64,000 bases of DNA from Escherichia phage fDHCT2, in sequence record OR427838.1; one strand, written 5' to 3'. The translations under genes were made by a program, and so were the position numbers. Positions 2,496 through 63,582 of the stretch are shown in pieces. Under the pieces are notes generated by a model. It was not told the origin of the DNA, did no database searches, and saw nothing but the letters and a program-made list of their open reading frames with translations. Each line of letters starts with the position of its first letter. Within the stretch, counting starts at the first letter, position 1.

Positions 2496-3335
2496 TTAAT
2501 CCTTAAGAAGATTTAGGATATCGATATATTTCTGACGTTCGGCCTTAGCTTTAGCATTCAGACCAGAGAGTCGGAAAATCTCATCATCTTGTTGCTGAAT
2601 TGTAACATTCAAGCAAGTAAGCAAATTGCTAAAATACTCGATTTGAGCTTGATGTTTCTCATTGCTGCGCACTGGTACAGGTTCTGGTTTAGGAGCTTCT
2701 GGGTGCTCTTCAGCCAGGTCTTTAATTTTATAAAGTTTAATACGCTGACCTGCTCCAGTTTCGGCATCACCAAAACTAAGAACACCGCGGCATTCCAGTA
2801 CAGACAACGCCAAACGAAGATGGAATTTCCAGTTTTCGTATTGACATCCACTAAAAGAAGAAATACTGTATTCACCTTCATTTTGACCTTTAATAACATT
2901 AAATAGTTTATAATCTAAAGAATTATTGGTTTTAAATGTCATTTGTTTATCAAGACCTTTTGCAAGTCGAGCACCAAGAGCCAGTAGACGTCGTTGGTTG
3001 GCATGAAGGTCTTGAACAACTTCGTCAAATGACATCACCGGGATTAAACGACCATAAAGGTCGTAGCCTTTGTTATAATTTTTAAGAATAATTTTGGCAT
3101 TAGCACGAGACAACATACCCGTTTTACGAAGAGTTTTCATGACTCGGTCTTCTAACGTAAACGAACCTTTAGTCTTGTCAAAGATTTTAGTGAAGTCATC
3201 TTTAACAGTACAAACGTTGAACTTGTCCCACATCATATATAGAACCTTTTCAACTACTTCTTTAGAACTCGGAATACGACCAAATTTAACAACTTTTTTA
3301 ACTTCAGAACGAATTTGATTAATTGCCTGTGACAT
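2496..3335 (-). CDS. hypothetical early/middle protein (279 aa)
   Basis: ORF with GAGGAAA SD upstream; MotA-box/TATAAT promoter at 3361-3400. Confidence 0.6.
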   Translation of the reverse strand: MSQAINQIRSEVKKVVKFGRIPSSKEVVEKVLYMMWDKFNVCTVKDDFTKIFDKTKGSFTLEDRVMKTLRKTGMLSRANAKIILKNYNKGYDLYGRLIPVMSFDEVVQDLHANQRRLLALGARLAKGLDKQMTFKTNNSLDYKLFNVIKGQNEGEYSISSFSGCQYENWKFHLRLALSVLECRGVLSFGDAETGAGQRIKLYKIKDLAEEHPEAPKPEPVPVRSNEKHQAQIEYFSNLLTCLNVTIQQQDDEIFRLSGLNAKAKAERQKYIDILNLLKD

Positions 3336-3360
3336 AATAATTTCCTCAGTAAGTAATTAA

Positions 3361-3400
3361 GAACCTAGAACCATTATACCATCCTTGGTATAAAGCGTTT
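3361..3400 (-). promoter_or_regulatory. middle-type promoter (MotA-box-like CGCTTTA, -10 TATAAT)
   Basis: Minus strand: CGCTTTA-12nt-TATAAT-GGTTCTAGGTTC upstream of ORF 2496-3335. Confidence 0.45.
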
Positions 3401-11150: not shown

Positions 11151-11503
11151 TTAGAGTTTAGCCCTCGATTGTAAGAGTCAACGAGTCTGTCTACCATAGA
11201 CGCGCACATTTCTTTGTACTTTTTATCAGACGGAACACATTCAGTAACGTTTAGACGTTGCTCGTATCTTTTAGAAAGAGTTTTCTCTTTCATTCGGCGA
11301 TGCTCGACGTCGTTCTGTCCATCTTTAAAAGCAGCTGTTATTTTTGAACTGAATTCAATAATACATTCAGTATTACTAGGATGACAATAATCTTTTGCTG
11401 TACGGGTAGCATACTCGACAATTGAATTATTGCTATCATCAACTTGTGACGCTAATACTCCCGGAGCGATCAACATAAGCGCTATAGTCATCTGTTTAAT
11501 CAT
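11147..11503 (-). CDS. small secreted protein (signal peptide, several Cys)
   Basis: 118-aa ORF with N-terminal hydrophobic signal-like segment. Confidence 0.5.
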   Translation of the reverse strand: MIKQMTIALMLIAPGVLASQVDDSNNSIVEYATRTAKDYCHPSNTECIIEFSSKITAAFKDGQNDVEHRRMKEKTLSKRYEQRLNVTECVPSDKKYKEMCASMVDRLVDSYNRGLNSK

Positions 11504-25418: not shown

Positions 25419-25493
25419 TGGTATCCCGCCCTGGGATCGAACCAGGACCGCAAACTTAGAAGGATCGTATGCTATCCATTACACCAGCGGGAC
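25419..25493 (-). tRNA. tRNA-Arg (anticodon UCU), CCA encoded
   Basis: Manual fold: acceptor GTCCCGC/GCGGGAT, D-loop AATGGATA, anticodon loop CTTCTAA, T-arm CCTGG-TTCGATC-CCAGG, 3' ACCA. Confidence 0.75.
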
Positions 25494-25498
25494 ATAGT

Positions 25499-25575
25499 TG
25501 GTGACCCGGACCAGATTTGAACTGGTAACCTTTCCCTTATGAGGGGACTGCTGCTAACCATTGAGCTACAGGGCC
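25499..25575 (-). tRNA. tRNA with anticodon CAU (Met or lysidine-modified Ile), CCA encoded
   Basis: Manual fold: acceptor GGCCCTG, D-loop AATGGTTAG, anticodon loop CTCATAA, T-arm ACCAG-TTCAAAT-CTGGT, 3' ACCA; one acceptor mismatch. Confidence 0.65.
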
Positions 25576-28661: not shown

Positions 28662-29251
28662 TATTTTCTCATAGATGGATGCATAGACATACGAGCCACA
28701 CGTTGTTCGGCATACGAATCAATTTGTGGACGACCTGTAACTATTGTACCATCTATTTCTACAGCAAACGATTTGAAGTTGAATGTTGCTGTAGCGATTA
28801 TCGCAGGGTCAGAATCTTCTTTATACGAGTACTGGATTTCCGAGAGGTCAGAGGGCCAACCACCATAGTAATGAATGCTCATTACGATTTTCTGTTTGTT
28901 GTTATCAAGGATGTGGAGCGTAATTGCTTCAGGTAAGCCTTTAGGATGCCAGGCTTCTGAATCATGGGTTACGTAGTTGTTTAATGATAACATCCACTTA
29001 TAAACGTCAAGCCATGATTTCAATTCTTTGTCCACAAGAAAGTTCACGACCAATGGGTCGAATTCTACAGTAGAACCTGGCAGCTTAGCACGATGTATGC
29101 CCTGGGTCGATCCTGGGACGTCTGAGATCGGAATATGGATACCAGGTAGTGTTACATCTTGTACGTTCAATTTGAATGACTGTGTCATTCCTGAGTCACT
29201 AACCTCTAAGATAAAGTTAGTGGTGTTAGTTTGGTTAAATAAACCGTTCAT
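28661..29251 (-). CDS. 3: gp3 tail completion / sheath stabiliser
   Basis: Trimmed to ATG 29251 (MNGLFNQ); synteny between genes 1 and 2. Confidence 0.65.
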   Translation of the reverse strand: MNGLFNQTNTTNFILEVSDSGMTQSFKLNVQDVTLPGIHIPISDVPGSTQGIHRAKLPGSTVEFDPLVVNFLVDKELKSWLDVYKWMLSLNNYVTHDSEAWHPKGLPEAITLHILDNNKQKIVMSIHYYGGWPSDLSEIQYSYKEDSDPAIIATATFNFKSFAVEIDGTIVTGRPQIDSYAEQRVARMSMHPSMRK

Positions 29252-29333
29252 AAGGTTCCTATATTGCTTAAGTCCCGGACAGTGTATAATGGTCCTAGGT
29301 CTGTTCCATTCAATAACTGGCTGGGATAATAGA

Positions 29334-30170
29334 TTATGAATTCTTCCATACTTTCTGAGCTGAGTAACGCTTACCTTTAGACATAAATTGCTGAAGTGGA
29401 AGCATGACCACATTAGCCCAATCAGCAGGTTTTATCTCTACTAAAGGGCCCTTGATATTTCCAGGGATATAAGCCTTAATCATCACGTCTGCACCAGCGA
29501 ATCCTTTTACCTTACTCCAATCGATTTTTAATTTAGTCGAGTTAGTAATGATAGGCGTACTCGCGTATTGCTTCAGCAATTCTTCCAGAAATTGTTGACG
29601 TGCTTTAGGTGGAATATAGTGTAAGTTCAGTCCGTACATTAAATTATGCTTACCTAACCCAAGATAAATGATTAAAGGATATTTGTCCCAGTATGGTAGG
29701 GTATCCTTGTGCTTGGCGTCATAGATATAAGCATAAAGCTTACCAGGAGATGGTTTAGATACCTGGTGTCCACGAATTCCTTTCTTTAATGTTTCTGTAA
29801 ACCATTTAGCTGATTTATTGTTTACAGCGGCGCCTTCGTTAGCAATCTTATCACGAATACTCTTTCTAAAACTATTCACCAAAATTAATTGACGTTCGGC
29901 TTTGGTTAATTTATTGCCAGGTTTATTCTGAAGTTTTTCAACCTGTACAGCAGTTTTAATTCGACTCGAGTATCGAGACATCGCAGATGTAAAGCTAGAA
30001 TACTTAATGCCTTTATCTTCAGCGAATTTCTTAGCCGAGACACCTTTAGCCTTAGCCTTGGCATATTCAACGCCTAAAGTTATCCATTGTTGTTCTGAAC
30101 GAGTAGGCTTGGAACCTTTTGTGGTTTCAGTAGCCTCATTGATGTAGGAAAATATACTCATCCTTTCCAT
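29334..30170 (-). CDS. 2: gp2 DNA end-protector protein
   Basis: 278 aa, basic; synteny. Confidence 0.7.
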
Positions 30171-52679: not shown

Positions 52680-54662
52680 ATGTCTTTATTATCACCGGGC
52701 ATTGAGCTCAAAGAAACGTCCGTACAGAGTACTGTCGTTCGTAACGCAACGGGTCGTGCAGCGCTGGTTGGTAAATTCCAGTGGGGCCCTGCTTTCCAGG
52801 TAACTCAAATTACTAACGAAGTTGAACTGGTGGATTTGTTTGGAGGTCCTAACAACGAAGTGGCAGATTATTTTATGTCTGGTATGAACTTCCTCCAATA
52901 TGGTAACGACCTTCGTACTGTTCGTGTTGTTAACCGTGAATTCGCTAAAAACGCATCTCCTGTTGCAGGCAATATCGAAACCACTATTACTACGGCTGGT
53001 TCTAACTATGCAGTAGGCGATAAAATTAATATCAAGCACAACCAAACTGTTGTTGAATCTGAAGGTCGTGTGACTTCTGTAGATACGGATGGTAAAATTC
53101 TTTCCGTGTTTATCCCATCAGCAAAAATTATTGCTTATGCACGTTCTTTAAACCAGTATCCTACCCTGGGCCCGGCTTGGACGGCTGAAGTTACTTCCGC
53201 TTCTTCTGGTGTTTCCGGTACTATTACCGTAGGTAAAATTGTTACGGATTCAGGTATTCTTTTAACTGAAGCAGAGAACAGTGAAGAAGCTATTACTTCC
53301 CTGGAATTCCAAGCATCTCTTAAGAAATTTGCTATGCCAGGCGTAGTTGCTCTTTATCCAGGCGAAATTGGTTCCACCTTAGAAGTAGAAATCGTTTCCA
53401 AAGCCGCTTATGATGTTGGTTCTTCTAAAATGCTGGATATTTATCCGGGCGGTGGTTCTCGTGCTTCTATTGCCAAGGCGGTATTTAATTACGGGCCACA
53501 AACAGATGACCAATACGCGATTATTGTTCGTCGTGATGGCGCTATCGTAGAATCTGTCGTACTTTCTACCAAAGAAGGTGAAAAAGACGTTTACGGTAAT
53601 AACATTTATCTTGACGACTATTTCGCTAAAGGTACTTCTAACTATATTTTTGCTACCTCTTTGAACTGGCCTAAAGGCTTCAGCGGTATCATTAATCTGA
53701 TGGGTGGTGTATCTGCTAACGATAAGGTTACTGCGAGTGATTTGATGCAGGGTTGGGATTTGTTCGCCGACCGTGAAGCACTCCATATTAACCTTTTGAT
53801 TGCCGGGGCCGTTGCCGGTGAAGGTGATGAAGTTGCTTCTACCGTCCAGAAACACGTTGTTAGTATTGCTGATGAACGTCAGGATTGCTTAGCATTTATT
53901 TCTCCTCCTAAAGGACTGTTGGTTAACGTTCCATTGACTCGTGCAGTAGATAATCTTATCGACTGGCGTACCGGTGCAGGTACTTTCGATACCAACAACA
54001 TGAACATTAGCACCACTTATGCTGCTATTGACGGTAACTATAAATATCAGTATGACAAATATAATGACGTAAACCGTTGGGTGCCTCTGGCCGCTGATAT
54101 GGCTGGTTTGTGTGCGCGTACAGATGATGTTTCTCAGCCTTGGATGTCTCCGGCCGGTTATAACCGTGGTCAGATTCTTAACGTTCTGAAATTGGCAATT
54201 GAACCTCGTCAAGCTCAACGCGACCGCATGTACCAAGAAGCTATTAACCCGGTTGTTGGTTTTGCTGGTGGCGATGGTTTCGTATTGTTTGGTGATAAGA
54301 CTGCAACTAAAGTTCCATCTCCGATGGACCATATTAACGTTCGCCGTCTGTTCAATATGCTTAAGAAAAATATCGGTGATGCCTCTAAATATAAACTGTT
54401 TGAATTGAACGATAACTTCACTCGTTCAAGCTTCCGTATGGAAGTTTCTCAGTACTTAGATGGTATTAAGGCACTTGGTGGGATTTATGAAGGACGCGTG
54501 GTTTGTGATACTACAGTGAACACCCCTGCGGTTATCGACCGTAATGAGTTTATTGCTAATATCTACGTTAAACCGTCGAGATCGATAAATTACATAACTT
54601 TAAATTTCGTTGCAACGAGCACTGGTGCTGATTTTGATGAATTGATTGGACCTTTAGTATAA
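52680..54662 (+). CDS. 18: tail sheath protein
   Basis: 660 aa (T4 659), late promoter 52643-52650. Confidence 0.9.
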   Translation: MSLLSPGIELKETSVQSTVVRNATGRAALVGKFQWGPAFQVTQITNEVELVDLFGGPNNEVADYFMSGMNFLQYGNDLRTVRVVNREFAKNASPVAGNIETTITTAGSNYAVGDKINIKHNQTVVESEGRVTSVDTDGKILSVFIPSAKIIAYARSLNQYPTLGPAWTAEVTSASSGVSGTITVGKIVTDSGILLTEAENSEEAITSLEFQASLKKFAMPGVVALYPGEIGSTLEVEIVSKAAYDVGSSKMLDIYPGGGSRASIAKAVFNYGPQTDDQYAIIVRRDGAIVESVVLSTKEGEKDVYGNNIYLDDYFAKGTSNYIFATSLNWPKGFSGIINLMGGVSANDKVTASDLMQGWDLFADREALHINLLIAGAVAGEGDEVASTVQKHVVSIADERQDCLAFISPPKGLLVNVPLTRAVDNLIDWRTGAGTFDTNNMNISTTYAAIDGNYKYQYDKYNDVNRWVPLAADMAGLCARTDDVSQPWMSPAGYNRGQILNVLKLAIEPRQAQRDRMYQEAINPVVGFAGGDGFVLFGDKTATKVPSPMDHINVRRLFNMLKKNIGDASKYKLFELNDNFTRSSFRMEVSQYLDGIKALGGIYEGRVVCDTTVNTPAVIDRNEFIANIYVKPSRSINYITLNFVATSTGADFDELIGPLV

Positions 54663-54787
54663 TCTATTATCCCAGGCTGTAATATAAAGAACCTAAAACC
54701 ATTATACCATGAGTTTGGTTACAGCGTACATCACGTAGAATTGCGCCTGGGATTGATTAACTATCAGGAATATGATTTATCAACTGT

Positions 54788-54795
54788 TATAAATA
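54788..54795 (+). promoter_or_regulatory. late promoter TATAAATA (gene 19)
   Basis: Octamer upstream of gp19. Confidence 0.65.
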
Positions 54796-54835
54796 AATTA
54801 ATCAGAACGTTCCTGGTGTGTCCAGGAACTGACTT

Positions 54836-55339
54836 ATGAGGCATCCCATGGAGTTGACAGATATCACTCGTGCATTTGAGTCAGGTGACTTTGCACGCCC
54901 TAACCTTTTCGAAGTGGAAATTCCATTTCTCGGTAAAAACTTTAGCTTTAAATGTAAAGCAGCACCTATGCCGGCAGGCATTGTAGAAAAAGTACCGGTT
55001 GGCTACATGAACCGTAAAATTAACGTAGCTGGTGACCGTACGTTTGATGATTGGACAATTACCATTTATAACGATGATGCACATGACACCCGTCAAGCAA
55101 TTGTCGATTGGCAGAATCTCTGTCATGGTATGACCAATGAAATTACCGGTGCAGCACCTGCAGAATATAAGAAACAAGCAGTAGTTCGCCAGTTCCATCG
55201 TGACGGCAAGACTGTGACCAAAGAAGTTACAATTTACGGCTTATGGCCTACTAACGTTGGTGAAGTCCAGATGGATTGGGATTCGAACAACGAAGTTGAA
55301 ACGTTTGAAAGTACGTTCGCTATCGATTGGTGGGAATGA
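54836..55339 (+). CDS. 19: tail tube protein
   Basis: Match to recalled T4 gp19 (TRAFESGDFARPNLF...); start may be ATG 54848. Confidence 0.9.
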   Translation: MRHPMELTDITRAFESGDFARPNLFEVEIPFLGKNFSFKCKAAPMPAGIVEKVPVGYMNRKINVAGDRTFDDWTITIYNDDAHDTRQAIVDWQNLCHGMTNEITGAAPAEYKKQAVVRQFHRDGKTVTKEVTIYGLWPTNVGEVQMDWDSNNEVETFESTFAIDWWE

Positions 55340-61143: not shown

Positions 61144-62424
61144 ATGGCTAAAATTAACGACCTTTTAAAAGAGTCGACCATTACTTCGAGTTCTTCGATT
61201 GGTCGTCCAAATTTAGTAGCTTTAACCAGAGCTACGACCAAACTAGTTTATACCGACCTTGTAGCTCAGCAGCGTACTAACCAACCTTTGGCTGCTCTAT
61301 ACGGTGTCAAATATCTTACAGAAAAAGACGAATTATCTTTCCAGACGGGTGCTACATATTCCGGCGCAGTATCCGCTAAAGACCGTGCCACTATCCCAGT
61401 TTTCACTGCAGGCGCTGTTTATGCTAAAGATGATTTGTTCCAATTTGAAAACGTAGTTTATAAAGCTTTGGTAGCAACCCCATTTGCCGGTGCTACTGGC
61501 GATGAATACGAACAACTTCAAGAAGCTATTGTTAAGTTGACTATCCGTATTATGTCCGAAGCCGCACTGACTGAGCGTTTTGAAGGCCCTCAGGATGTAG
61601 ATATTTCTGAAGCCAAATTCGTAGTTAATAAATGGAACGCTCCAGTTAAATCCCGTAAGTTGAAGAGTACTGTTACTGTAGAATTGGCTCAAGACCTCGA
61701 AGCAAATGGTTTCGATGCCCCTAATTTCTTGGAAGACCTCCTGGCTACTGAAATGGCTGATGAAATCAACAAAGATATTCTTCAGTCCCTGGTTACGGTT
61801 TCCAAGCGTTATAAAGTTGAAGGGTTGTGTGATGATGGCTTAATTGACCTGAGTTATGCTAACTCACCGGAAGCTTCTCGCAAGCTTTATGAATTGGTGT
61901 GTGAAATGGTTTCTCATATCCAGCGCGCAACCTCTTATACGGCAACTTATGTAGTAGCGAGTACTCGTGTAGCTGCTGTTCTGGCTGGTTCCGGATGGTT
62001 AAGACATACCCCACAGAACGACAAATATCTTTCTGCAAGTGCATACGGATTCCTGGAAAACGGTTTGCCTCTGTATTGTGACACCAACACGCCTATTGAT
62101 TATGTTACTGTAGGTGTTAAAGAGGAATTTGGTGGGAAGGAAGCGGTAGGTTCTCTGTTCTATGCACCGTATACCGAAGGATTAGATTTGGCTGACCCGG
62201 AACACGTGGGTACATTTAAAGTGGTCGTTGACCCTGAAAGCCTGCAACCATCTATTGCATTAATGGTTCGATATGCACTGGCTGCTAACCCTTATACGGT
62301 TACTGCTGATGATAAACAAGCCCGTATTATTGATGCGACTAATATGGATTTGATGGCGGGACGTTCTGATATGTCTGTATTGCTTGGTGTGAAACTTCCT
62401 AAAGTTTTGACTGAATTAAATTAA
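61144..62424 (+). CDS. 24: capsid vertex protein
   Basis: 426 aa (T4 427), gp23-like fold expected; late promoter 61107-61114. Confidence 0.9.
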   Translation: MAKINDLLKESTITSSSSIGRPNLVALTRATTKLVYTDLVAQQRTNQPLAALYGVKYLTEKDELSFQTGATYSGAVSAKDRATIPVFTAGAVYAKDDLFQFENVVYKALVATPFAGATGDEYEQLQEAIVKLTIRIMSEAALTERFEGPQDVDISEAKFVVNKWNAPVKSRKLKSTVTVELAQDLEANGFDAPNFLEDLLATEMADEINKDILQSLVTVSKRYKVEGLCDDGLIDLSYANSPEASRKLYELVCEMVSHIQRATSYTATYVVASTRVAAVLAGSGWLRHTPQNDKYLSASAYGFLENGLPLYCDTNTPIDYVTVGVKEEFGGKEAVGSLFYAPYTEGLDLADPEHVGTFKVVVDPESLQPSIALMVRYALAANPYTVTADDKQARIIDATNMDLMAGRSDMSVLLGVKLPKVLTELN

Positions 62425-62455: not shown

Positions 62456-63463
62456 TTATTTGGATACTAGTTCAATCCATACTGCTCGTAAGGTATCTTT
62501 TACGCACTCAACGAGCTGCTTTTTAACTTCAACAGGATTTTCGGCATCAGTTAATTCTAATTCTTCGCGGGCTGCTTCTTCCAAAATATCTTGGACTGTC
62601 AGTCCCATCACCTTTCCAAAATCCTTTTTAGATACTTCACCAATCTTACTGATAACGTTGTTAATACGGTTAACAGTCACATAATCAGTGAATTGCCACA
62701 TCAAGTCCATATCGTCTTGGGATAAAACCACTGCAACTTTAATAGGCTTATCAGACTTTTTCTTCTCGCTGAATTTAGAGTTCTTACATTTAATCGCTAC
62801 ACGATTTCCGTTTGGAAGCCAGATAGGAACATCAGGTTTCAGTACAAAGCCTTCGGCGGTGAATACTTTACCTTCTACCTTAGGAATAAAATCTGTTGAG
62901 TTCGCAATAGTTAGGCCAGCATTATCCACTGCAAAATTATAATCAGGAACAACAGAATCAAAATCATTAGGAAGTTTAATAAGGTCTTCAAAGCTACCAG
63001 TGGCCAGACATGGCGCAACCTTAAACTTATGGATAATACAGAAGGCTTCCATCAATGTATCGGATAGAACAGATTCTGAGCCATCTTCCTTAGTAACTCG
63101 GATATCGAACACATAAAAGTCTTTATCACCGTAATCCACATTCTTCTGGATACCCGGCCCAGCGAATTCGCCGTAAATTTGATATGACTGATAATTAATC
63201 GATTCAATTAGATGTTGAACGGATTTAATAGAATCAGCATAATTCTTTAAAACAATTTCATAACCAAAGAAATCTTCAGCAGGGAGGATAGGGCCAGTGC
63301 GCTTGGCGCATGTGACTGCGTCACGTTCTATGATTAGACTAAAGTTGGTCCCATGAATCTTCTCACGTGCCACCCATTCACCACCAGTCAAACCGTTAGT
63401 ACGGAGTTTTTCGATAAACTTACTGTTGTAGTGGTTTTCGAGACTGCTATATTTCTTGAACAT
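62456..63463 (-). CDS. rnlB: RNA ligase 2
   Basis: Match to recalled T4 Rnl2 N-terminus ([20 protein letters not shown]...KIHGTNFS), 335 aa. Confidence 0.9.
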
Positions 63464-63537
63464 AAATCACCATAATAAATATAATTAAATAGAAGAGCTA
63501 GTAGTCTTCTGTCACCAAGCCAAATGGTTTAACGGAA

Positions 63538-63582
63538 GGACCTAGACCCATTATATCACACCTAAATTTAAAGCATATTACT
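63538..63582 (-). promoter_or_regulatory. middle promoter (MotA box ATGCTTTAAA, -10 TATAAT) for rnlB
   Basis: Minus strand ATGCTTTAAA-13nt-TATAAT-GGGTCTAGGTCC. Confidence 0.55.

Follow-up and report, generated by a model that had tools for sequence, protein, structure and literature searches.

A conserved, backward-facing promoter of predicted middle type lies after gene 2 in the T4-like phages examined, T4 included, and, as sequence comparison indicates, three genera have a further copy after gene 18. The window, the whole 64,000-nt stretch of Escherichia phage fDHCT2 DNA analysed here, comes from a JS98-like member of Dhakavirus, a T4-like group, and is 96-98% identical to JS98. We lean slightly towards reading its gene 18-19 (sheath-tube) spacer as two ordinary T4-type transcription signals combined, one of them facing backward.

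Layout of the gene 18-19 spacer

The spacer proper covers 54663-54847, its end being set by the gene 19 ATG at 54848. The features read in the sense direction are as follows.

52680-54662, plus strand: gene 18 (tail sheath), from the list of open reading frames and the JS98 gp18 annotation
54660-54662, plus strand: gene 18 stop codon TAA, directly 3' of which the repeated cassette starts
54669-54753, plus strand: stem-loop domain of 85 nt in the late (sense) RNA, enclosing the entire predicted antisense promoter
54690-54720, plus strand: inner hairpin AACCTAAAACC ... GTTTGGTT, in both MFE and centroid structures
54788-54795, plus strand: T4-type late promoter TATAAATA for gene 19, an exact match, with a predicted late start near 54801
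54809-54829, plus strand: hairpin with an 8-bp stem and 5-nt loop, GTTCCTGG (54809-54816) / CCAGGAAC (54822-54829), in the 5' leader of the late gene 19 mRNA
54838-54850, plus strand: gene 19 Shine-Dalgarno GAGG (54838-54841) and start ATG (54848-54850)

The most likely start of gene 19 is ATG 54848, which gives a product of 163 aa, as gp19 is annotated in JS98 and T4. The original prediction began gp19 at 54836 and accordingly gave a 173-nt spacer; the ATG at 54836 is lost through T54837A in 7 of the 15 aligned relatives that cover the position, and the later start is favoured. The late promoter octamer TATAAATA stands 52 nt before ATG 54848, in agreement with the T4 late promoter. It had been overlooked at first, and so had two features described below, the MotA-box-like element and the further antisense copy that follows gene 2. 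The same octamer occurs at 12 sites on the plus strand of the window, at least 8 of them just upstream of late genes. The gene 19 site is conserved in Dhakaviruses, and late promoters precede gene 19 in most relatives.

The hairpin originally described at 54810-54828 is present, with the slightly longer limits given above. Its position downstream of the gene 19 late promoter makes it a 5' leader element and not a read-through attenuator. Hairpins of such size arise in 3.3% of spacer shuffles, so that it is modestly unusual on its own. Variation among relatives is confined to the loop; in ABTNLS3 the loop is inverted and the stem kept. Read on the minus strand, the hairpin runs into a T-rich tail, and it is terminator-like on that strand only. 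Modules of late promoter plus hairpin, with other sequences, occur in L040 and L022. In the gene 19 mRNA the hairpin would come first, followed by the ribosome-binding site and then ATG 54848, and it probably acts as a 5' stabiliser.

The stem-loop domain after gene 18 is bounded by an inverted repeat, ATCCCAGGC (54669-54677) and GCCTGGGAT (54745-54753), whose arms are complementary at 9 of 9 positions and lie 67 nt apart. This is one base longer than the repeat first reported (54670-54677/54745-54752), making 9 bp. Inverted repeats of at least 9 nt appear in 5.7% of spacer shuffles, again modestly unusual taken alone. Folding, a check proposed with the original prediction, returned a structured spacer, with z = -2.0 for the whole plus strand, z = -2.3 for the minus strand, and z = -3.2 for the interval 54660-54760. 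The arms of the inner hairpin flank the antisense -10 element in the MFE and centroid predictions alike. Sense-strand folds give z = -2.4 to -5.5 in 7 of 8 cassette copies tested from five lineages, the exception being the window's gene 2-3 copy (z = -0.3). Spacers of Marfavirus and Gaprivervirus have equivalent stems made of other sequences. Two substitutions in the outer arms, 54752 A>G (7 phages) and 54677 C>T, retain a G.U pair in plus-strand RNA only, and selection may therefore act on the sense-strand structure. RNA started at the predicted antisense promoter cannot form the stems. The late sense transcript, by this model, would fold across the cassette into a stem-loop domain whose outer 9-bp stem and inner stem bracket the -10, and which would mark the 3' side of the gene 18 message.

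Rfam searches with the spacer (E <= 10) and with the whole window (gathering score) returned chance snoRNA-like matches and two tRNAs only, and ARAGORN found neither tRNA nor tmRNA in the spacer. Candidate readings that were rejected include a tRNA remnant, a plus-strand promoter within the 23-nt block discussed below, and a small protein gene, namely a 32-aa TTG open reading frame (54741-54839) that lacks a ribosome-binding site and crosses a variable block.

The predicted antisense promoter and its paralogues

T4 middle promoters carry a MotA box, (a/t)(a/t)(a/t)TGCTTtA, near -30 and 12 +/- 1 bp from the -10; about half of the known examples have a TGn element, and MotA tolerates deviations from the consensus (PMC2988021). 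The minus strand of the spacer carries the following elements.

54720-54726, minus strand: MotA-box-like CGCTGTA, 13 nt upstream of the -10
54701-54709, minus strand: extended -10, TGG-TATAAT (TGn 54709-54707, TATAAT 54706-54701)
54694, minus strand: predicted antisense start, an A 7 nt past the -10 within the conserved GGTTTT-A-GGTTC
54659-54693, minus strand: predicted antisense RNA leader, containing CTGGGATAATAGATTAT (54675-54659)

The TGG-TATAAT at 54709-54701 agrees with the -10 and TGn of a T4-type middle promoter. The MotA-like box agrees with the T4 consensus TGCTTtA in 5 of its 7 positions, the intact GCT core included, and is the weakest of the family. Box and extended -10 are both invariant in 17 Dhakavirus spacers, an observation that carries no statistical weight because spacers within the genus are 94-99% identical, with about 10 variable columns per 95 nt. 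MotA and AsiA are both annotated in JS98, their genes falling outside the 64-kb window. The MotA-type pattern matches the JS98 genome 11 times, against 0.8 in shuffles, and 9 of the 11 matches are on the early/middle strand upstream of genes that include uvsX, nrdC.6 and rnlB. A scan for sigma-70 -35/-10 pairs left the minus-strand site unflagged since it has no -35 element, a result consistent with a MotA-type promoter but uninformative.

The 23-nt block at 54688-54710, which first drew attention to the site, is real. Its copy at 3360-3382 is also sound (22 of 23 positions, with 0 expected by chance), while the copy at about 63536-63558 agrees at only about 18 of 23; the description "near-identical" was an overstatement for this copy, which is absent at three or fewer mismatches. 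The block had been placed downstream of TATAAT elements, whereas the TATAAT lies within it (ATTATA at 54701-54706 on the plus strand). The 18-mer TATAATGGNTNTAGGTNC, comprising the extended -10 and start motif, is exact in all three copies, and a fourth copy occurs at 29285-29302 on the plus strand. Allowing up to two mismatches, it has five matches against 0.13 expected, four of which are the copies just described. The paralogues are listed here.

3361-3397, minus strand: middle-promoter paralogue in normal orientation, 5' of the nrdC.6 homologue (2496-3335); CGCTTTA, 12 nt, TGG-TATAAT-GGTTCTAGGTTC
63538-63575, minus strand: middle-promoter paralogue in normal orientation, 5' of rnlB (62456-63463); TGCTTTA, 13 nt, TATAAT-GGGTCTAGGTCC
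29265-29337, plus strand: paralogous cassette in the gene 2-gene 3 spacer, antisense to late genes; TGCTTAA (29265-29271), 13 nt, TATAAT (29285-29290)
29297, plus strand: predicted start A of the gene 2-3 copy, whose leader reaches the gene 2 stop codon (29334-29336)

The nrdC.6, rnlB and uvsY promoters also contain the -10/start motif, and the experimentally mapped T4 middle promoters PrnlB and PuvsY occupy positions homologous to those of the paralogues. The MotA boxes of the paralogues read CGCTTTA, TGCTTAA and TGCTTTA. The A of CTAGG predicted as the start after gene 18 is found at the equivalent position in the nrdC.6, rnlB and gene 2-3 copies. The likeness among the dispersed copies could reflect recombinational homogenisation and not shared function.

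The gene 2-3 cassette fills its 82-nt spacer and shares with the gene 18 copy the -10, the start region and the leader up to the stop codon. The common leader measures 55 nt, and homology stops at the stop codon. The local alignment score of the two copies is 45, compared with 19 +/- 2.7 in shuffles, and the 17-mer CTGGGATAATAGATTAT is common only to these two copies in searches of JS98 and the window. Conservation of the gene 2-3 cassette extends from T4 to four more lineages. Comparison of Dhakavirus, Gaprivervirus and two more lineages leaves the -10 (ACCATTATA) and the MotA core (AAGCA) without any change, and the flanking stem shows compensatory substitutions across those four lineages. 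T4 has a perfect version at the same place, TAATGCTTTA, 13 nt, TGGTATAAT, and this antisense promoter is the sole close paralogue of PuvsY in the 66 kb of T4 examined. Between gene 1 and rnlB, the compilation of mapped T4 middle promoters contains no entry. In the window, the first 400 nt downstream of the gene 2 copy contain no open reading frame of 25 aa or more; the predicted T4 gene 2-3 antisense RNA has a 45-aa open reading frame, which is unconserved. We take the gene 18 cassette to be a lineage-specific second copy of the cassette that follows gene 2 in every Tevenvirinae lineage examined, T4 included.

The suggestion that a promoter fires antisense into gene 18 thus finds support in sequence comparison: TGG-TATAAT together with a MotA-like box is rare by chance, has paralogues, and has counterparts in other genera. 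We consider it fairly probable that the predicted promoter is active. In the prereplicative phase of infection, transcription by host sigma-70 RNA polymerase, with AsiA remodelling the enzyme and MotA recruiting it, would begin at about A54694, and the TGn element may permit starts independent of MotA. The product would be an untranslated RNA running antisense into the 3' end of gene 18, and the promoter would be off once late transcription takes over. Downstream on the antisense strand, the only terminator-like site is a weak 6-bp candidate (54328-54314) about 365 nt away, and no conserved open reading frame follows the predicted promoter; lacking both, the antisense product has no defined end. 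A survey of literature on antisense and anti-late transcripts and on genome-wide T4 start sites yielded nothing specific to the site.

Distribution among related phages

Seventy-seven gene 18-19 spacers were scanned, and the promoter pattern was found on the minus strand only, never on the plus. It is limited to Dhakavirus, Gaprivervirus and Marfavirus, the three lineages whose spacers are longest (180-204 nt); GenBank contains 50, 34 and 24 phages, respectively, in which these spacers are conserved. Analogous predicted minus-strand promoters occupy the same site in Gaprivervirus and Marfavirus. The Gaprivervirus antisense copies carry the TATAATGGTTCTA of that genus's own PrnlB and PuvsY, and its gene 2-3 copy matches PrnlB/PuvsY further, through TATAATGGTTCTAGACC.

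Most relatives, including T4, have a plain G+C-rich hairpin directly after gene 18. The T4 gene 18-19 spacer, named at the outset as a comparison, follows the same logic as that of the window, with a hairpin after gene 18 and one or more late promoters belonging to gene 19. It differs in length (116 nt), has two TATAAATA sites, and shows no sequence similarity to the Dhakavirus spacer. No minus-strand TATAAT/MotA-box promoter is seen on reading the T4 sequence, which is outside the set of 77 scanned.

T4 origins and alternative readings

Our best guess, by analogy, is that the antisense RNA would be an "anti-late" or origin-type transcript such as those of T4 ori(34) and oriE. The notion of anti-late RNA and the paper on oriE are background to this comparison. 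P34i of T4 ori(34), or oriG, is a MotA-dependent middle-mode promoter (MotA box plus TATAAT) that is antisense to a late structural gene and yields a non-coding RNA, as is predicted of the gene 18 element; the T4 RefSeq record describes the oriG primer RNA as running in the "opposite direction of adjacent gene 34". The P34i sequence AGTGTATAATGGTCCCAG is closely similar to AGTGTATAATGGTCCTAGG of the gene 2-3 copy in the window, and JS98 keeps a P34i homologue of the same TATAATGGTTCC...GGTTCC flavour. P34i differs in lying within the coding sequence of late gene 34, whereas the gene 18 element sits in an intergenic stem-loop and has a weaker MotA box. T4 oriE (repEA/repEB) likewise drives prereplicative transcription antisense to a late gene, its primer RNA being annotated in the T4 record as "complement of gene 5 transcript". 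It carries small antisense open reading frames, in contrast to the absence of a conserved one downstream of the gene 18 antisense promoter; it relies on an early promoter and not a middle one, and has 12-nt iterons (PMC3016281). PuvsY, PrnlB and PnrdC.7 share the architecture of the gene 18 copy and, in this phage, its extended -10/start motif. Ordinary middle promoters such as these face a gene with a ribosome-binding site, while ahead of the gene 18 copy there is only the antisense strand of late genes, for about 24 kb.

If the promoter is active, we are about evenly divided among three possibilities: its RNA would prime or open DNA through an R-loop, it would interfere with transcripts made prematurely from the late region, or it would serve no selected role. 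A specific version, which we regard as quite unlikely, holds that the antisense middle promoters after late genes (after gene 2 in all T4-like phages examined, T4 among them, and after gene 18 in Dhakavirus, Gaprivervirus and Marfavirus) are origin promoters like those of oriF and oriG. Their untranslated RNAs would then form R-loops and prime or open DNA at both ends of the late block, genes 53 to 18. If true, this would couple early replication to late transcription, and would explain why the -10/start region tracks the uvsY (oriF) promoter of each genus. Middle promoters serve two of the T4 replication origins, and an origin of the oriF/oriG type relies on a middle-mode promoter whose transcript primes replication. 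For origin function in T4, an unwinding element must lie downstream and the R-loop must persist (PMC3016281). A+T content over +1 to +60 is 0.68, against 0.60 +/- 0.07 for the genome, 0.70 for T4 oriF and 0.62 for oriG; non-origin promoters are similar, and by A+T and purine content origin promoters are indistinguishable from other promoters, so the measure does not discriminate.

T4 is a reference system for phage transcription and replication, and a review of its replication lists as open questions the determinants of origins and R-loops and the start of early DNA synthesis in late-gene regions (PMC3016281). Antisense promoters of the kind predicted here would, if active, bear on both questions and give the late-gene block an additional class of transcripts, antisense and prereplicative. 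If inactive, they leave the spacer as an ordinary arrangement of hairpin and late promoter.

An unlikely alternative is that the sense-strand structure alone is under selection, as a stem-loop with which the late sheath message would end or by which it would be stabilised, the promoter-like sequence in its loop being an inactive relic or a coincidence. The G+C-rich hairpins after gene 18 in most relatives fit this reading, as do the low z-scores of the cassette copies tested other than the window's gene 2-3 copy, the G.U pairs retained in plus-strand RNA alone, and the covariation of stems between lineages at the gene 2-3 site. A hairpin, however, needs no TATAAT and GCT-core box spaced by 12-13 nt, yet this arrangement is invariant across five lineages while the stems vary. 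It is also missing from the plus strand in 77 of 77 spacers, and in each genus the loop motif matches that genus's bona fide middle promoters. The sense-structure and promoter readings are compatible with each other. Very little credence attaches to the original proposal of a regulatory RNA or attenuator that would act in cis from the spacer, perhaps together with an antisense partner, and set the sheath:tube ratio. It draws on the structured state of the spacer and on the closeness of the hairpin to the gene 19 ribosome-binding site. Against it, the region 54300-55200 has no plus-strand site resembling an intrinsic terminator, and the hairpin lies 3' of the gene 19 late promoter and leaves GAGG and ATG unoccluded in the predicted fold. 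Moreover, no Rfam family matches, the predicted antisense RNA overlaps neither gene 19 nor its leader, and genes 18 and 19 are expressed in most relatives although the cassette is absent there.

It is quite unlikely that the cassette is the footprint of mobile DNA without present function here, whether a spread module like PeSL/PmSL or the relic of a lost reverse gene or homing-endonuclease insertion. The site is an insertion hot spot with a phrog_5104 open reading frame on either side in some phages, the cassette has inverted-repeat ends and a 55-nt paralogue 25 kb away, and it is restricted to some genera; phage nt-1 is known to contain PmSL elements built on Mot promoters (PMC4122927). PeSL/PmSL elements (Arbiol 2010; Comeau 2014) are, like the cassette, short repeated modules of a stem-loop and a sigma-70-type or Mot-type promoter. 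Their stem-loop stands just upstream of the promoter, which faces an open reading frame with a Shine-Dalgarno sequence, and they occur in many copies in hyperplastic regions near indels. The cassette departs from this definition (PMC4122927) in that its stems enclose the promoter and no open reading frame follows; only two copies share the leader, and both lie between core late genes, although insertions flank the site in some phages. The cassette is kept in 50 of 50 matching Dhakavirus records, including those with flanking insertions, and equivalent non-homologous cassettes occupy the same site in Gaprivervirus and Marfavirus. A conserved antisense promoter remains the reading that we prefer.

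As a separate observation, the spacer is a hot spot for insertions in some phages, and these flank the site of the gene 18 cassette. The inserted open reading frames have no match in Pfam and belong to an unnamed PHROGs family (phrog_5104); on our reading they may contain an HNH-like motif. The phrog_5104 open reading frame follows the gene 18 stop directly in QL01 and UP19, and PSD9 and UGJNEcP3 show the same split alignment, as judged from alignment only. In Bp7 and EcoM_005 it immediately precedes gene 19, as it probably does in IME540, whose match ends at the same point.

Spacer limits and the gene 19 leader

The window derives from a JS98-like, T4-type phage of the genus Dhakavirus, with 96-98% identity to about 50 JS98-like phages across 54300-55200. 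It carries two tRNA genes (Arg, Met; 25419-25575) against three annotated in JS98 (Arg, Asn, Met), and a single gene 24 (61144-62424) against tandem 24a/24b copies in JS98 and VR20. Because the tail tube protein gp19 is annotated at 163 aa in both JS98 and T4, the start of gene 19 is placed at ATG 54848; the original prediction had used an ATG at 54836 that is destroyed in many relatives. The gene 18-19 spacer therefore spans 54663-54847 (185 nt), keeping the left edge first proposed but running past the right edge of the earlier 173-nt interval, 54663-54835.

52680-54662: gene 18 (tail sheath)
A54694, minus strand: predicted antisense start
54788-54795, plus strand: T4-type late promoter TATAAATA, exact match
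54838-54841: Shine-Dalgarno GAGG of gene 19, preceding ATG 54848
55397: start of gene 20

The late promoter octamer occurs at 12 plus-strand and 4 minus-strand sites in the window, at least eight of the 12 lying just upstream of late genes. The hairpin predicted ahead of gene 19 is real, with an 8-bp stem (54809-54816/54822-54829); such a hairpin arises in 3.3% of spacer shuffles and alone is not very unusual. The predicted late start lies about 8 nt before the hairpin, which would thus be a structure in the 5' leader of gene 19 mRNA. The predicted fold leaves the ribosome-binding site free, and variation is confined to the loop. Salmonella phage ABTNLS3 (locus L088) has the loop (window 54817-54821) inverted from TGTGT to ACACA over an unchanged stem, as if template switching or recombination had flipped a palindrome. 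Gaprivervirus and lineage L040 have late promoter and hairpin modules of other sequence. Read on the minus strand, the window's hairpin (54809-54829) has a T-rich tail and scored as terminator-like. The proposed role of the spacer as an attenuator, or in sheath/tube stoichiometry, found no support.

A minus-strand middle-promoter-like element and its copies

On the minus strand, the element reads GTACGCTGTA-ACCAAACTCATGG-TATAAT-GGTTTTAGGTTC, with a perfect -10, an extended TGn and, 13 nt upstream of the -10, a box containing the GCT core of the MotA box. T4 middle promoters have the consensus (a/t)3TGCTTtA, 12 +/- 1 bp, TAtaaT, with TGn in about half of those known; MotA tolerates deviations in its box, and the -10 requirement is stringent (PMC2988021). 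The element resembles them in architecture. The MotA-type pattern has 11 matches in the 170.5-kb JS98 genome versus 0.8 in shuffles, nine of them on the early/middle strand before genes such as uvsX, nrdC.6 and rnlB, and middle promoters have been mapped in T4 at several homologous positions (PuvsX, PrnlB, PuvsY, PdsbA, PnrdC.7). JS98 encodes both MotA and AsiA. A further middle-promoter-like site in JS98, 11188-11212 (plus strand, locus L005, outside the window), has TGCTTTA, 12 nt and TATAAT; its neighbors on either side, srd and modA, are both minus-strand genes, so that it is opposite to them.

The -10 lies in a 23-nt block (54688-54710) for which two near-identical copies downstream of TATAAT had been proposed. 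The copy at 3360-3382 holds (22/23 identical, 0 expected by chance), but the one near 63538 matches at only about 18/23, and TATAAT proves to be part of the block rather than upstream of it. All three copies have TATAATGGNTNTAGGTNC in common, on the strand originally given. This motif has five matches at two or fewer mismatches, versus 0.13 expected; the fourth is at 29285-29302 on the plus strand, and the fifth, a two-mismatch match, lies inside a late gene. The fourth belongs to a second antisense copy, which has a counterpart in T4.

29265-29337, plus strand: second antisense copy, lying between the minus-strand late genes 2 and 3
T4 locus L110 1489-1506 (NC_000866 ~75988-76005), plus strand: promoter-like site in the gene 2-3 spacer, antisense to genes 2 and 4

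On the minus strand, the start of gene 3 is ATG 29251 (MNGLFNQ..., 196 aa, as JS98 annotates), so the gene 2-3 spacer is only 82 nt, nearly all of it plus-strand promoter and leader; starts at 29188 or 29413 (a 250-aa ORF) were rejected in favor of the JS98-annotated one. The MotA box of this antisense promoter adjoins the ribosome-binding site of gene 3. The two antisense copies have about 55 nt in common, from the -10 through the late gene's stop codon, and their local alignment scores 45 versus 19 +/- 2.7 in shuffles; their shared 17-mer CTGGGATAATAGATTAT occurs nowhere else in JS98. The two promoters point at one another from either side of the block of genes 53-18, which is about 25 kb long.

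The gene 2-3 cassette (promoter and flanking stem) is found in Dhakavirus, Gaprivervirus and two further lineages. The alignment columns that do not vary are those complementary to the -10 (ACCATTATA) and to the MotA core (AAGCA), and the flanking stem shows compensatory changes, from CCCAGCCAGT/ACTGGCTGGG to CCCGGCCAGT/ACTGGCCGGG, ATCCCAGTTT/AAACTGGGAT or TCAGTGTTAT/ATAACACTGA. In T4, the antisense strand of this spacer reads TAATGCTTTA, 13 nt, TGGTATAATGGGTCTAAGTCC, by sequence a perfect MotA-type promoter, with a -10/start region almost identical to that of the uvsY promoter (oriF), its only close paralogue within 66 kb of T4. The compiled list of mapped middle promoters does not include this site and gives none between P1 and PrnlB; the T4 RefSeq record has no annotation for it either. 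Interest comes mainly from this gene 2 copy, which is present in T4 itself, off the compiled list and easy to test.

Cassettes across genera

We examined 77 sheath-tube spacers from IMG/VR, 3-769 nt long, or 24-204 nt for those in direct contact with gene 18. In most Tevenvirinae the spacer measures about 105-125 nt and has a late promoter near gene 19. Among the 77, the MotA-type pattern appears on the minus strand only and is restricted to the three lineages whose spacers are longest.

Spacers with the MotA-type pattern, with GenBank records in which the spacer is conserved
Dhakavirus: 185 nt; 50 records
Gaprivervirus (VR20/SP18/VR7): ~203 nt; ATGCTTTTA, 12 nt, TATAATGGTTCTACGG; 34 records
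Marfavirus: 180 nt; ATTGCTAAA, 13 nt, TGGTATAAT; 24 records

The three cassettes align with one another at the promoter only, yet each directly follows the gene 18 stop codon and has its own enclosing inverted repeat. In Gaprivervirus, TATAATGGTTCTA is common to the antisense copies and to the genus's own rnlB and uvsY promoters, the match of the gene 2-3 copy extending through TATAATGGTTCTAGACC; Dhakavirus copies likewise match promoters of their own genus.

In the window, the enclosing repeat is the long-range inverted repeat noted originally, confirmed at 9 bp (54669-54677/54745-54753). A repeat of at least 9 nt arises in 5.7% of spacer shuffles and alone is not very unusual; the whole spacer folds at z ~ -2 on either strand. 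In seven of eight folded cassette copies, the sense sequence after the stop codon is predicted to form a stem-loop whose arms bracket the antisense -10 (z = -2.4 to -5.5); the window's gene 2-3 copy has a weaker sense fold (z = -0.3). Because the stems are upstream of the predicted antisense start, only the late sense transcript, or DNA, could form them. Both outer-stem substitutions within Dhakavirus, 54752 A>G (seven phages) and 54677 C>T (one phage), keep a G.U pair in plus-strand RNA only. For these reasons we read the cassette as probably dual, a late-message stem-loop after the gene, its loop carrying a putative reverse promoter. This stem-loop may be likened to the plain hairpins that follow gene 18 in T4 and most relatives.

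Predicted antisense transcription, origin analogues and inserted reading frames

Paralogy, rarity and cross-genus positional conservation support the proposal of a promoter directed antisense into gene 18, and on these sequence grounds the balance tilts toward an active middle promoter there. Downstream, the minus strand showed no conserved ORF and a single terminator-like site, a weak 6-bp candidate; the product would thus be a non-coding RNA antisense to the gene 18 3' end. Its nearest analogues are T4 ori(34)/oriG and oriE, whose primer RNAs the T4 record describes as running in the "opposite direction of adjacent gene 34" and as the "complement of gene 5 transcript", respectively. T4 oriF and oriG both combine a middle-mode promoter with an A+T-rich unwinding element, and early T4 synthesis begins mostly in late-gene regions (PMC3016281). 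A homologue of P34i/oriG is kept inside JS98 gene 34 (152817, minus strand, locus L008; TTTGCTTCT, 12 nt, TATAATGGTTCCATAAGGTTCC). An A+T test did not tell origin promoters apart from others, and we consider it unlikely that the antisense promoter marks an origin. The P34i homologue has the same GGTTC direct-repeat flavor as the 18-19 promoter family. PeSL/PmSL cassettes of T4-like phages, defined by a promoter with a stem-loop upstream and an ORF downstream, located in a hyperplastic region (PMC4122927), were also considered; the 18-19 cassette does not fit that definition.

The gene 18-19 spacer is a hot spot for insertions. In QL01 and UP19, an ORF of about 180-223 aa, of the unnamed PHROG family phrog_5104, directly follows the gene 18 stop, and by alignment PSD9 and UGJNEcP3 are split in the same way. 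In Bp7 and EcoM_005, a relative in that PHROG family sits just before gene 19, replacing the late-promoter/hairpin part; the IME540 match breaks off at the same point (alignment only).

QL01 (L001) 1864-2564: phrog_5104 ORF
UP19 (L002): phrog_5104 ORF
Bp7 (L096) 1190-1861: phrog_5104 ORF
vB_EcoM_005 (L010): phrog_5104 ORF

By eye, an HNH-like DHK...N...N motif is present in the ORF, which in QL01 comes with an early-type promoter of its own, GTTTAC-N17-TATAAT. Beside the QL01-type insert, the last 60 nt of gene 18 fall to 78-84% identity, which looks like a co-conversion tract. At mid-spacer, window 54760-54767 has alternative 8-nt alleles among Dhakaviruses, ACTATCAG versus TTCTTTAG or TTCTCTCA, a block replacement rather than scattered point changes. 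A further inserted ORF lies between genes 19 and 20 in QL01 (L001, 3312-3893); it matches the homing-endonuclease PHROGs phrog_314 and phrog_10820 and, weakly, Pfam SegE_GIY-YIG.
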